The notes under the pieces were generated by a model. It ran no database searches. It had not been told where the DNA came from and saw nothing but the letters and a program-made list of their open reading frames with translations. This document shows, in pieces, positions 39-56,474 of a DNA stretch of 64,000 nt (positions are counted from its first letter, which is position 1; each line of letters starts with the position of its first letter). The stretch is from a virus. The DNA lies in IMG/VR virus record IMGVR_UViG_3300020183_000020, positions 1 through 64,000 of that record; one strand, 5' to 3'. Made by a program: the position numbers and the translations under genes.

Positions 39-614
39 ATGGAGAAAAAAATGACAAACATACTCAGAGAACTGATGGTGAGAGTAGCCCACCTAGAGAA
101 AAAGGCAGGACTCTCCGCCCCCATCGACCTAAGTGAAAAATATCTCGCAGGTATCGACCTGAAAGGGGCTAACCTCTCGGATATGAACCTATCAGGTAAA
201 AATCTATATGGGGCTGATTGCTCGGGTGCGAACCTAAAGCACGCAGAACTCATTGATTCTATTCTCGTTCAAGCTAACTTTGAGAAGGCGAACCTCGGCG
301 GTGCTGATCTCAGAAAGGCTAAGATCATGAATACTAACCTCAAGGGGGCTAGCCTACCTATCGCTGACCTCGAAAGGGCGGACCTATCGGGGGCTAACCT
401 CACGGGGGCTAACCTACATGGGGCGATCCTCGAAGGTGCTCGCCTTGAGAAAACCATTCTCGTGAAGGCTGATCTCTCATCTGCTATCCTAGATGGAGCG
501 AATCTGAAGGGGGCGATCCTCAAGGGGGCAAACCTCAAGCGGGCTACCTATAACGACTCAACCAGACTCCCCGCCCTCGACGCGGACCAGCTCGCCGTCA
601 TGATAAAAGTGTAA
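39..614 (+). CDS. Pentapeptide-repeat protein with N-terminal LRELMVRVAHLEKKAG tag
   Basis: Long A(D/N)LxG pentapeptide run; N-terminus matches the recurrent tag. Confidence 0.9.
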   Translation: MEKKMTNILRELMVRVAHLEKKAGLSAPIDLSEKYLAGIDLKGANLSDMNLSGKNLYGADCSGANLKHAELIDSILVQANFEKANLGGADLRKAKIMNTNLKGASLPIADLERADLSGANLTGANLHGAILEGARLEKTILVKADLSSAILDGANLKGAILKGANLKRATYNDSTRLPALDADQLAVMIKV

Positions 615-620
615 GACACC

Positions 621-880
621 TACACTCAGAGAACTGATGGTGAGAGTAGCCCACCTAGAGAGAAGGGCTGCCCTAGTAGGGGAACCTGACAGGGGCAGAC
701 CTCTCGGGTCGAGATTTGAAGGGGCGAATCTCTCCTACGCGAACCTAAAGGGGGGCTGATCTTAGGGGGCTAACCTCAAGGGGCTCGACCTGAGCAGGGG
801 CTAACCTATTGGGGGCGGTCCTAGAGATGGCTGACCTAGAGGATCATGGGGGCGAACCTCAGAGCGGGCTGGTCTCAAGG
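621..880 (+). pseudogene. Frameshifted tandem copy of the pentapeptide gene
   Basis: 624-661 is identical to 62-99; followed by broken GGGGCTAACCTC/GGGGCGAACCTC units with no start codon or long ORF. Confidence 0.8.
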
Positions 881-905
881 ATTTCAAATAGGGGGGTTAG
901 ATTAA

Positions 906-935
906 GTATCCCAAGTGGGATTATCCGATATTAGT
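906..935 (+). promoter_or_regulatory. Phage promoter class E (GTATCCCA-N15-TATTAGT)
   Basis: One of 7 copies with an exact 15-nt spacer, each upstream of a gene. Confidence 0.75.
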
Positions 936-972
936 TAGGTGTGAGAGATAACCCCAACTAAGGAAAGAGAAG

Positions 973-1572
973 ATGGATAATCTAACATTCAACGCCCACA
1001 GCACCATCGTCAAGTTCACGACCACCAAGAAGGGGACCCCCGATCTCAAGGTCGAGGGGGGGCAGGTTCGTGGTAAGCATAAGGTGGTGGTCACCTTGAT
1101 GGTGGGTGTGGATCACAAGGTGGTGGCGGCACTTGATCTATTGAGGGTCAAGGGGGCAGACCTCTCCGCCCTGCGGAGGGATATAGAGAGTGAGATGGGG
1201 GAGTTAACGGATTCAGATTGGGGGGATGCCCTTCATGGCACCCTGCCGAGGAAGAAAGGGCTTCTGATTGCACTTCAACAATCAGCTTGTGGTGAGAACG
1301 AGTCGGTGGGGCATTTAAATGCGTATGAGGCACACCCGATTGGGGTTTCGGGAGTCGTAAGGCACAAGGCGACAGGGGAGACCCATGTGAGAGGGTTGGT
1401 AGTGTCTGAGACAATCCTTGAGGCAGACCCACTTGGCGACTCTCGGCAGGTTGAGAGTGGGGTTCATGTAAACATAAAGAATCGGATTGTGAAGAACCTA
1501 GGGTTGGCTACGGGGAAGTGGAGGCAGTACACGCTTCCCGCAGATGTGACGCTCACCAAAGCTGGCTTCTAA
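973..1572 (+). CDS. Hypothetical protein (putative early gene)
   Basis: 199-aa ORF, AAGGA RBS, class E promoter. Confidence 0.8.
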   Translation: MDNLTFNAHSTIVKFTTTKKGTPDLKVEGGQVRGKHKVVVTLMVGVDHKVVAALDLLRVKGADLSALRRDIESEMGELTDSDWGDALHGTLPRKKGLLIALQQSACGENESVGHLNAYEAHPIGVSGVVRHKATGETHVRGLVVSETILEADPLGDSRQVESGVHVNIKNRIVKNLGLATGKWRQYTLPADVTLTKAGF

Positions 1573-1598
1573 AGGGTGGCGGGGTGGCGGAGAATCGT

Positions 1599-1647
1599 TA
1601 GACTTTTTATTTATTGGATAGTGTGAATTCACACGGGGTTATCCAAT
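1599..1647 (+). promoter_or_regulatory. Class L motif (TA-N5-TTTAT) plus hairpin covering RBS and start
   Basis: TAGACTTTTTAT, then ATTGGATA-GTGTG/CACAC-TATCCAAT stem overlapping the ATG at 1646. Confidence 0.7.
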
Positions 1648-1945
1648 GAGCAATCAGCACCAAACTATCTTAGAGTGGGTCTTTAAGGGGCTATCGGCTG
1701 TAGTTTTGCCGATAGCCATTTATGTGTTGAATATGTCAACGACCCTAGCTCTGCAAGACCAAGAGATAAAGGCTTTGCAAGAACAGGTATCCGAACACAA
1801 GAATGAGTTGAAGAAAGTTCAAGAGGGGATGGTGGCGGTGCAGTTATTGAGCCAAGAGCTAAAGCAGATAAAAGATGACCTTCAACGCAACAATCAGATG
1901 ATGAAAGAAGTCTACGACCATATTTTAAGAACAGGTGGTCGCTAA
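1646..1945 (+). CDS. Membrane protein, 1 TM plus coiled coil (holin-like architecture)
   Basis: N-terminal hydrophobic helix followed by heptads. Confidence 0.65.
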   Translation: MSNQHQTILEWVFKGLSAVVLPIAIYVLNMSTTLALQDQEIKALQEQVSEHKNELKKVQEGMVAVQLLSQELKQIKDDLQRNNQMMKEVYDHILRTGGR

Positions 1946-2315
1946 GATGAAGTCGTTATTATTTTACTGCACAATAGGGTTTTTTGGATTTGTGTTGGTG
2001 AGTGTTGTACCTAGCCCGATAGGGAAGCCCAAAGGTGATCAGAAAACACCGAAAGAGCAAAAAACGGATAAACCATTAATGGGGCAGAGACTAAATAGAC
2101 AATTGCATGGTATTAAGAAAGAGCGAGAGGAGTGGAACACTCGAACTCGCTGTTTACGCCAAGCGATTTTAGGAGATATGAACCATGAGCGAACAGACCA
2201 AACCCGCCCCACAAGAGATGGGACAACTGACGGAACAAGAGCTTCAGACGATTGCCCAACTACGGACAGCCGCGAATCAGCTATTGGGAACACTTGGACA
2301 GTTGGAAATCCGTAA
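1935..2315 (+). CDS. Hypothetical membrane-anchored protein
   Basis: Hydrophobic N-terminus; 3' part overlaps the next gene. Confidence 0.4.
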   Translation: MVAKMKSLLFYCTIGFFGFVLVSVVPSPIGKPKGDQKTPKEQKTDKPLMGQRLNRQLHGIKKEREEWNTRTRCLRQAILGDMNHERTDQTRPTRDGTTDGTRASDDCPTTDSRESAIGNTWTVGNP

Positions 2316-2472
2316 GTCTCGTGTAGTTGCTCTATTAGAACGCAATGAGGTACAGGCACAACAGATTCTATCTGAGGCTCGTAAGCGTAGTGGTGTATCT
2401 GATGATATGCCGTGGCAGATTCAAGAGGATGGGAAAATCCTAGCTATCCCAACCAATACGCCTGAGGGGTAA
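2185..2472 (+). CDS. Small coiled-coil protein
   Basis: AGGAG RBS, helical composition. Confidence 0.75.
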   Translation: MSEQTKPAPQEMGQLTEQELQTIAQLRTAANQLLGTLGQLEIRKSRVVALLERNEVQAQQILSEARKRSGVSDDMPWQIQEDGKILAIPTNTPEG

Positions 2473-55098: not shown

Positions 55099-55172
55099 TG
55101 GGCAATCTGGGGCTTGAACCCAGGACCGACCGTTTATGAGACGGGTGCTCTAACCAACTGAGCTAAATGCCC
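55099..55172 (-). tRNA. tRNA-CAU (Ile2 or elongator Met)
   Basis: Loop CTCATAA; paired 1:72, so not an initiator. Confidence 0.9.
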
Positions 55173-55178
55173 TTAGAT

Positions 55179-55267
55179 TCAATGTCCCATCTGACTGTGC
55201 CGCTTCTATACGGCTGCCACCAGATTGTACGATTTAAGCTGAGGTTCACGACCGTAGAGAACATTGA
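55179..55267 (-). ncRNA. Candidate 89-nt three-way-junction RNA between tRNAs
   Basis: UCAAUGUUC/GGACAUUGA closing stem plus two internal stems. Confidence 0.45.
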
Positions 55268-55268
55268 G

Positions 55269-55342
55269 TACACCAAGTAGGGCTCGAACCTACGACCCAC
55301 GGCTTAGAAGGCCGTTGCTCTATCCAACTGAGCTATTGGTGC
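55269..55342 (-). tRNA. tRNA-Arg(UCU)
   Basis: Loop CTTCTAA. Confidence 0.95.
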
Positions 55343-55390
55343 TTATATGAACACTATACCACGCCGACGGGGGCGTTATAACATTTCAAA

Positions 55391-55472
55391 TGCCCAAGGT
55401 CGGACTTGAACCGACACTCCCGAAGGAAACGGATTTTGAATCCGCCGCGTCTACCAATTCCACCACTCGGGC
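55391..55472 (-). tRNA. tRNA-Leu(CAA)
   Basis: Loop TTCAAAA; long variable arm. Confidence 0.95.
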
Positions 55473-55569
55473 TAATGTCCCCATCCGTTGATGGGGAGGG
55501 GAGGTTTGAACCGCTGTTCTCCTACACTAGTATAGAAACCTGACTAGGACTTCAAGGAAAAAAGAAGCA

Positions 55570-55959
55570 TCAGCCCCATTTTAACAGAAAAGGTTTTTTA
55601 TCCTTGGGGTGTAGAGGATATCTCAGAACATCTGAGATAGGAACCCACTTCCAATCCATGTGTTCGTCATTGATGGTGGGCGTAAACTTTACATCTACTT
55701 CGGCTAGATAGAGCGTGTACCCACTACAGTAGATTTCGTCATAGATTTGATACGGCACCCCGCTGCCAATAAGTTGCCGTTCTTCATCTCCTCCTAGCTC
55801 TTCATATGTTTCTCTGAGAGCTGTGGTGTAGTGATCTTCGCCTTCTTCAGTCTTCCCCCCTGGGAAGTTCCATGTACCGCCCCACTTGTCGTGTGGAGAT
55901 AAGACCCTCTTTAGGATAAGCGTATCACTTCCACATATGAACATAACTCCTGCACCCAT
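55570..55959 (-). CDS. NUDIX hydrolase
   Basis: GGKTEEGEDHYTTALRETYEELG Nudix box. Confidence 0.92.
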   Translation of the reverse strand: MGAGVMFICGSDTLILKRVLSPHDKWGGTWNFPGGKTEEGEDHYTTALRETYEELGGDEERQLIGSGVPYQIYDEIYCSGYTLYLAEVDVKFTPTINDEHMDWKWVPISDVLRYPLHPKDKKPFLLKWG

Positions 55960-56081
55960 ACTAGTTCTCCTTCTTATGGTGTCGATTAGGTCTAGGTTTT
56001 ACCAAGTGGGCTGAGTTTTCTTATTTCTTTTATACTAGTTGCATATGTCGGTCAAAAAACCGACCCTATGGAGTCACAATC

Positions 56082-56474
56082 ATGATAAGAAGAACCGCTA
56101 GTGAAGTTTTAAGAAGCCTTGAGATGAGAGTCTCCCGCCTTGAGGGTAAGACAGCGACTCGCAGAACCGCTGCCAAGAAAATCCGTTTGGATAGAAATGT
56201 GGAGCAGAGGGTGATGAGAGAGATCGCTGATCGGTTTGACATAGAAATGGATGAAGACTCATATTATTGGCACAACCCTGTTTTTGAGGTTTTAGCTGAA
56301 GAAAAGGGTAGCCGCAATGTGTCCGAAGGTTCAATATTTCAGCTTCTAAAGCTAGCGAATGACGACTACTATGTGGTGCTACAGGTCATCCCTTTCGCAA
56401 ATGACTCGGACATCATAGGTGTTTACGACAGCATCTCTGATGCCCTGCGTGATTTCAAGCTAGCCAACCGCTAA
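56082..56474 (+). CDS. Tag-bearing protein (MIRRTASEVLRSLEMRVSRLEGKTATRRTAA)
   Basis: Class L motif at 56022; GGAG RBS. Confidence 0.85.
   Translation: MIRRTASEVLRSLEMRVSRLEGKTATRRTAAKKIRLDRNVEQRVMREIADRFDIEMDEDSYYWHNPVFEVLAEEKGSRNVSEGSIFQLLKLANDDYYVVLQVIPFANDSDIIGVYDSISDALRDFKLANR

Follow-up and report, generated by a model that had tools for sequence, protein, structure and literature searches.

Why should a set of otherwise unrelated small proteins of one virus carry nearly the same short peptide? The question was raised by a stretch of 64,000 nucleotides (here called the window), which forms bases 1-64000 of the 110,137-bp viral contig IMGVR_UViG_3300020183_000020 from IMG/VR, with an estimated completeness of 35%. 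The element in question is a tag, a helical peptide of about 20 residues (RRTASEVLRSLEMRIARLE) that was found on many unrelated small proteins in a clade of uncultivated huge phages. We favour, with a probability of roughly 0.55, the view that the tag may serve as a portable signal for loading, comparable in function to the capsid-targeting sequence (CTS) of phage T4, which would direct proteins into the head and would then be removed. This view is drawn from comparison of sequences.

A tag common to unrelated proteins

A preliminary description of the window had listed ten sites with the peptide, and all ten were found in place by a fuzzy peptide search and translation. A tag profile was built from six copies and scanned against all six reading frames of the full contig. 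Nine significant copies were obtained contig-wide, six of them within the window (E 1e-8 to 1e-13). The three copies beyond the window were located at 102470(+), 105932(-) and 105410(-, truncated). The remaining four window sites were weaker, being divergent or truncated (E 0.04 to 1.3). The ten window copies are as follows (ORF, open reading frame; an arrow marks a putative cut).

6446-6517 (+): N-terminal tag of ORF 6440-6766, RR-TASEVLQSLEARIARLE followed by GRTAS; profile match 6446-6502, E 7e-13
8426-8494 (+): tag copy ahead of the ORF ending at 8746, followed by KAAG; profile match 8426-8482
27981-28037 (-): N-terminal tag of ORF 27585-28043; profile E 1e-11
56088-56174 (+): N-terminal tag of ORF 56082-56474, followed by GKTAT-RRTAA; profile match 56088-56144
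7130-7189 (-): C-terminal tag of the HExxH protein 7118-8311, RLA↓SASQALRSLEMRISRLE-SSR-stop; profile match 7130-7180, E 2e-9
12151-12207 (-): internal tag of ORF 11782-12978 (residues 258-276), GRTA↓SDTLRELEVRIARLE; profile E 2e-11
9434-9478 (-): truncated tag NRSASEVLRRL of ORF 8897-10051, within the linker that joins its HAD and C39 peptidase domains; profile match 9434-9472, E 0.1
54-110 (+): divergent N-terminal tag of the pentapeptide-repeat protein 39-614, TNILRELMVRVAHLE-KKAG; profile match 54-98, E 0.04
616-672 (+): divergent tag in a broken duplicate of the pentapeptide-repeat gene; profile match 616-660, E 0.04
39127-39183 (+): distant tag variant near the N-terminus of ORF 39094-39435, RNEIIRLHRRIARLE-RIAG; profile match 39127-39171, E 1.3

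The internal tag of ORF 11782-12978 separates two unrelated parts, and the copy at 9434-9472(-) retains the first 10 tag residues only. The pseudogene noted at 621 (about 601-980) is a broken copy, with in-frame stops, of the pentapeptide-repeat gene. In the 8420 copy, ATA stands in place of the ATG seen in its twin at 56082, the earliest canonical start (8462) lies within the tag, and the upstream promoter-like motif is weak; hence this copy may be decaying. The variant at 39127 has mainly RIARLE in common with the tag, and resembles the N-terminus of 287309 in G001, a 290-kb relative (93% complete) that was analysed as a whole genome.

The tag is clade-wide. G001 carries 17 copies, and three further fragments of relatives carry 8-9, 10-11 and 3. 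A profile search of 1.84 billion representative proteins returned 863 proteins at E<=1e-3. Among the best 150 of these, 149 were genuine by a core-motif check, or about 148 after removal of P0053; P0005 was likewise flagged, and by inspection both resemble an unrelated repeat protein. In nearly all of the best 150 proteins (50-370 residues) the tag begins at residue 1-2, and a few have an additional internal tag. The library consensus is RR[TS]ASEV[IL]R[SN]LEMR[IV]ARLE, followed by [RKG][QRK][AST][AST]. Tag-bearing members occur on contigs of up to 375 kb, and more distant tag lineages (MRRSASEVIRNLE) on contigs of 250-375 kb. When 185,579 cellular genomes were scanned, no relative of the tag was found, and a full-text literature search with the tag peptide returned nothing relevant.

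The attached proteins (cargo) are unrelated, as had been proposed: no mutual similarity was detected at E 0.1 among the window carriers, the alignment between G000 and G001 was limited to the tag, and the 140 library cargos fell into 124 BLAST components. That the tag is carried by diverse enzymes was an overstatement, as enzyme-like or repeat domains occur in just three of the window carriers. Searches of the cargo proteins with Pfam and PHROGs found only pentapeptide repeats and HAD+C39, and the 140 library carriers are nearly all orphans of about 100-250 residues, virtually without Pfam domains. The HExxH protein 7118-8311 had a single homologue among 5.8 billion proteins. In the ESM Atlas its nearest named cluster was LPD23 (0.87), which is an unconfirmed lead only.

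Selection acts at the level of the peptide, as judged from the variety of synonymous codons at invariant residues. In 22 copies from two genomes, the invariant A, L, R, L and E are each encoded by two to four synonymous codons, and Ser5 by all six, from both serine codon families. A pure DNA repeat was rejected, because the codon-level variation preserves the peptide. Within subfamilies, the DNA of the 5' untranslated region (UTR) and tag is 73-93% identical while the cargo is at the 55% background; hence the promoter-UTR-tag unit is also copied or gene-converted as a cassette. The first codons of the tag are strongly biased to AGA, GAA and TTA. Both observations would suit a repeat that is primarily a promoter-UTR-leader cassette, a DNA-level module of recombination or expression with the peptide as its passenger. 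Such a module, however, accounts poorly for the synonymous variation, for C-terminal and internal copies that have no promoter or UTR, and for a peptide that is near-identical over hundreds of metagenomic proteins. A cassette role fits the loading signal as a secondary role, and as the primary explanation we consider it quite improbable.

The window also holds eight tRNA genes (13991-14803, 25461-25534 and 55099-55472). Among them are Arg(TCT), Thr(TGT), Leu(TAA) and Val(TAC), whose respective codons AGA, ACA, TTA and GTA dominate the first ten of the tag.

The peptide had been described as a coiled coil. Its hydrophobic residues are spaced 3-4-3 (L6, L9, I13, L16), and an AlphaFold2 (AF2) model of the 56082 ORF (mean confidence score, pLDDT, 42) placed a helix at residues 6-20 and coil at residues 21-37, at low confidence. 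It is on these grounds that the tag could be mainly a short self-association handle, which oligomerises small effector domains and has no role in sorting. Against this, there are two heptads only, and the hydrophobic moment is unexceptional, being reached by 11% of shuffled sequences. Moreover, the non-core positions are strongly conserved, and self-association would leave unexplained the flanking motif, the position in the head gene cluster and the common promoter-like motif that are described below. We therefore hold this explanation to be very doubtful.

Head genes, the promoter-like motif and [KR]-x-A-S sites

The terminase, portal, head-maturation protease and major capsid protein of G001 were identified via PHROGs and by phmmer comparison with the annotated Tunturiibacter phage Tunturi_5. 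The G001 capsid protein shows 90% identity with its counterpart in LR745208.1, 47% with that in Tunturi_5 and 39% with gp27 of Bacillus phage G; the capsid lineage is phage G-like, with a 292-residue capsid protein that lacks a delta domain. LR745208.1, from an uncultured 485-kb phage, was also the best match for the PolA and a sheath-region protein of the window genome.

The gene order in G001 was terminase, portal, tagged gene, tagged gene, 206-residue protein, 1062-residue protein, protease, acidic scaffold-like protein, 201-residue protein, capsid protein, tagged gene, tagged gene. In both G001 and G002, two tagged genes separate the portal gene from the conserved 206-residue gene, and the slot after the major capsid gene contains two in G001 and three in G004. 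The cargo of these tagged genes differs each time between genomes.

An upstream promoter-like motif, TA-N5-TYTAT, had been noted before most tag carriers, and this was borne out. A position weight matrix (PWM) was trained solely on the upstream sites of untagged structural genes, which had initially been chosen with the earlier reader's own regular expression. With this matrix, 16 of 23 N-terminal tags reached or exceeded the score that marks the 99th percentile of random windows (12.7), at 50-79 nucleotides upstream. The odds ratio for the motif on tagged versus other genes was about 14 (p ~1e-4). Two decayed tag copies on the window contig are without the motif. By this measure the tagged genes have the promoter-like motif of the structural genes. 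Between the motif and the start codon lies a conserved inverted repeat, a putative hairpin, whose 3' arm enters the GGAG ribosome-binding site. The upstream elements are listed here.

6372-6383 (+): TA-N5-TYTAT motif about 74 nucleotides 5' of the 6446 tag, PWM score 17.2
28105-28116 (-): TA-N5-TYTAT motif 5' of the 28037 tag, PWM score 17.1
56022-56033 (+): TA-N5-TYTAT motif 5' of the 56088 tag, PWM score 17.0
8354-8365 (-): TA-N5-TYTAT motif 54 nucleotides 5' of the HExxH gene 7118-8311
13028-13039 (-): TA-N5-TYTAT motif 61 nucleotides 5' of ORF 11782-12978
6385-6440 in the window and 149755-149810 in G001: examples of the inverted repeat 5' of tagged genes

Sites of the form [KR]xA[SGA] had been reported to flank the tags, and they are present there. 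Among the library hits, [KR]xA[SGAT] was 36-fold denser over the ten positions that follow the helix than elsewhere in these proteins; a site followed the helix in 77 of 145 cases by the strict pattern and in 102 of 145 by the relaxed one. A double-glycine leader, which would end in GG, GA or GS and pair with a C39-ABC exporter, was also considered and was rejected: in 6 of 145 cases the helix is immediately succeeded by GG, and the sole C39 domain (8897-10051) is without a transporter part.

[KR]xAS is also enriched in whole genomes. G001 has 122 sites, compared with 50±7 in shuffled sequences, and G000 has 36 compared with 19, while permuted control patterns were flat. The sites cluster in a 796-residue protein encoded beside the terminase (10), the scaffold-like protein (7), the protease (3) and tagged proteins (3-4). 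For the 796-residue, 1062-residue, protease and scaffold-like proteins taken together, 21 sites were counted against 2.6±1.6 expected. An RVA↓S site is kept in the orthologues of four genomes although its surroundings vary. [LI]xE was mildly enriched in head-module proteins (46 versus 35±5), and [SAG]xE showed no enrichment in the proteins tested here.

No tag was found in LR745208.1 or Tunturi_5, and the basic-residue motif was counted in their proteins. LR745208.1 has 6 [KR]xAS sites in the scaffold, 3 in the protease and 6 in the homologue of the 796-residue protein. In Tunturi_5, K-x-A-S occurs 5 times in a 'DNA ejection protein', 5 times in a DarB-like protein, 4 times in gp332 beside the protease and 7 times in gp348, against one site in about 5,400 residues of tail-fibre and sheath proteins. 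The phage G protease gp19 has two sites close to its C-terminal end; the multi-omics paper on phage G contains no cleavage-site data. Given its presence in tag-less LR745208.1, in Tunturi_5 and in phage G, [KR]xAS is older and wider than the tag, and its distribution is like that of a prohead-protease site. By analogy with assemblin sites, we infer that the cut would fall between Ala and Ser.

Paired sites were also seen elsewhere. The window protein 42123-44858(-), of 911 residues, ends in RIAS...RVAS-LAKK, and its 469-residue counterpart in G001 (204568-205977, minus strand) ends in RVAS-RKIAS. In the window protein 16020-17594(+), of 524 residues, the N-terminal region is identical to the N-arm of the G001 major capsid protein at 14 of 26 residues, with KYA↓SLTQPLMTRRDYGSV aligned to KLAA↓SMTQPLRLRRDYTSV. 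This likeness hints at a common processing site or at a minor capsid-like protein.

The tag as a candidate loading signal

The preliminary description had interpreted the tag as an address that packs proteins into the head for injection and is released by cleavage. The sequences support this interpretation in part: they show a portable, position-flexible peptide on unrelated cargo, a flanking motif strongly enriched in scaffold, prohead protease and other head-module proteins, the promoter-like motif of structural genes and, in several genomes, a position in the head cluster. The sequence of events that we propose is as follows. Late in infection, many small, fast-evolving accessory proteins would be made, all carrying one module in which [KR]-x-A-S is followed by a helix of 15 residues (EVLRSLEMRIARLE) and then by [RKG]-[QRK]-[AST]-[AST]. 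The helix would dock on a component of the assembling prohead core. The prohead protease would then cut [KR]-x-A↓S, so that the cargo is freed within the head and enters the next host with the DNA. A site on either side of the helix would make the module usable at the N-terminus, at the C-terminus or between two domains: with N-terminal tags the downstream site would free the cargo, and with C-terminal tags (7118-8311; G001 45006-45497) the upstream one. The internal copies (11782-12978, P0066, P0024) look like fusions of tag-plus-domain units. The conserved promoter-UTR-tag DNA could double as a homology handle for the swapping of cargo genes.

Several results weigh against this reading. The tag had no match in 50,697 GenBank phages (tblastn), and none of its carriers is cultured. 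In about 30% of N-terminal tags no site can be recognised behind the helix, and it is hard to see how RR[TS]AS, which is strictly conserved before the N-terminal helix, would serve for cleavage in that position. There are two candidate proteases in G001, as it encodes a ClpP-like 'head maturation protease' (163432-164100; phrog_94, E 2e-38) besides that of the head operon (154859-156244). The AF2 models of the 56082 ORF and of the HExxH protein (pLDDT 39) were unusably poor. In four genomes the tag profile showed no likeness to any head protein compared, scaffold, protease and portal included, and hence there is no receptor candidate. Finally, LR745208.1 is tag-less even though its capsid protein is 90% identical, its head cluster is syntenic and [KR]xAS is present; phages can thus do without the tag system, and the capsid protein by itself is probably not the receptor.

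Some of the same results would agree with a tag that docks on, or is recognised by, a target other than the head interior. This could be a chaperone or an assembly factor of the phage, its tail or baseplate, some other compartment that the phage builds, or a protease adaptor, in which case the tag would be a degron (e.g. for the ClpP-like protease); [KR]xAS would then be part of the epitope and not a cut site. The invariant residues on the solvent face (RR[TS]AS, E, R) imply a specific partner, the position of the tag is flexible, a ClpP-like gene lies near the head cluster, and the relative with a near-identical capsid protein does without the tag. Yet tagged genes lie within the portal-to-capsid cluster in three genomes, and it is in the scaffold-like protein, the protease and head-module proteins, on which prohead proteases classically act, that [KR]xAS sites accumulate. 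A degron on at least 17 late orphan genes would also be without evident reason. We regard a docking target of this kind as unlikely, and retain the loading signal as the preferred reading.

A second N-terminal helical motif, unrelated to the tag, was observed: L[RK]xx[LV]IR[LI]AxxxPx[LI]Rxx[LI]xP[LI]LK. Its carriers are the following.

Window 35398-36450 (-): second helical motif, followed by TAS and KSAS sites
G001 283647-283958: second helical motif
LR745208.1 389893-390948 (-) and 398171-398575 (-): second helical motif

One carrier in the tag-less LR745208.1 lies between the scaffold and capsid genes. The second motif may be an alternative address. In the window, 36899-39070(+) gave a weak match to DUF2345 (VgrG C-terminal), below the Pfam cut-off, which suggests a possible tail spike or baseplate hub.

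The injected proteins of huge phages are almost unknown, since nearly none of these phages has been cultured. In its broadest form, the proposal makes the tag a universal packaging address for a large clade of huge phages, all of them uncultivated, whose several hundred orphan cargo families would be a catalogue of virion-delivered effectors (e.g. anti-defence or host-takeover proteins); this we put forward tentatively, at slightly less than an even chance. If it is true, the injected proteome of the clade could be identified directly from metagenomes, and hundreds of candidate anti-defence or host-takeover proteins would be flagged. The site-helix-site arrangement would also be a compact, position-independent tag for the loading of foreign proteins into very large capsids, and tag and protease site together an engineering handle for cargo. 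The results further predict a prohead protease specificity of [KR]-x-A↓S for the capsid lineage of phage G and Tunturi_5, both of which are cultured.

Comparison with known systems

The nearest parallel is phage T4, in which diverse internal proteins have only the CTS in common, and the cargo consists of injected anti-defence proteins (PMC3012670). As with the CTS of IPI-III and Alt, a short conserved leader stands on otherwise unrelated, fast-evolving accessory proteins, encoded in hyperplastic loci; in the present case too, one short conserved terminal peptide is common to otherwise unrelated proteins of one phage. The leader is followed by a site, here a putative one with strong motif statistics, whose motif is also found in core or scaffold proteins. 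The T4 CTS comprises about 10 residues, whereas the present tag has about 20 and by eye bears no sequence relation to it. The T4 site is [LI]-x-E and not [KR]-x-A-S. In contrast to T4, the tag is also found at C-termini and between domains, with sites flanking the helix on both sides, in far more copies (at least 17 per genome, with hundreds of cargo families) and in phages of a phage G-like capsid lineage.

In the giant phages phiKZ, 201phi2-1 and SPN3US, a single prohead protease with a three-residue recognition motif strips N-terminal propeptides from many proteins of the head and of ejection, and a protease of this type trims its own C-terminal tail (PMC10052503). Those propeptides differ from the tag in being protein-specific and 20-254 residues long, where here one conserved peptide is shared; their motif ends in Glu, and the corresponding [SAG]xE is not enriched here.

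The assemblin sites of herpesviruses, (V/L/I)-x-A↓S, occur in the C-terminal part of the protease and in the scaffold, and are taken as a lead only. They resemble the present sites in this placement and in a small residue and then Ser at the scissile bond (as predicted here), and the present motif differs in its basic P3 residue.

With encapsulins, the tag would have in common a short terminal peptide, at either end, that loads unrelated cargo into a shell of the HK97 fold. An encapsulin loading peptide, which serves a non-viral shell lacking portal, terminase and tail, was nevertheless rejected, as terminase, portal, sheath and head-maturation protease are those of a true tailed phage; moreover, the tag is unrelated in sequence to encapsulin loading peptides and appears to be removed.

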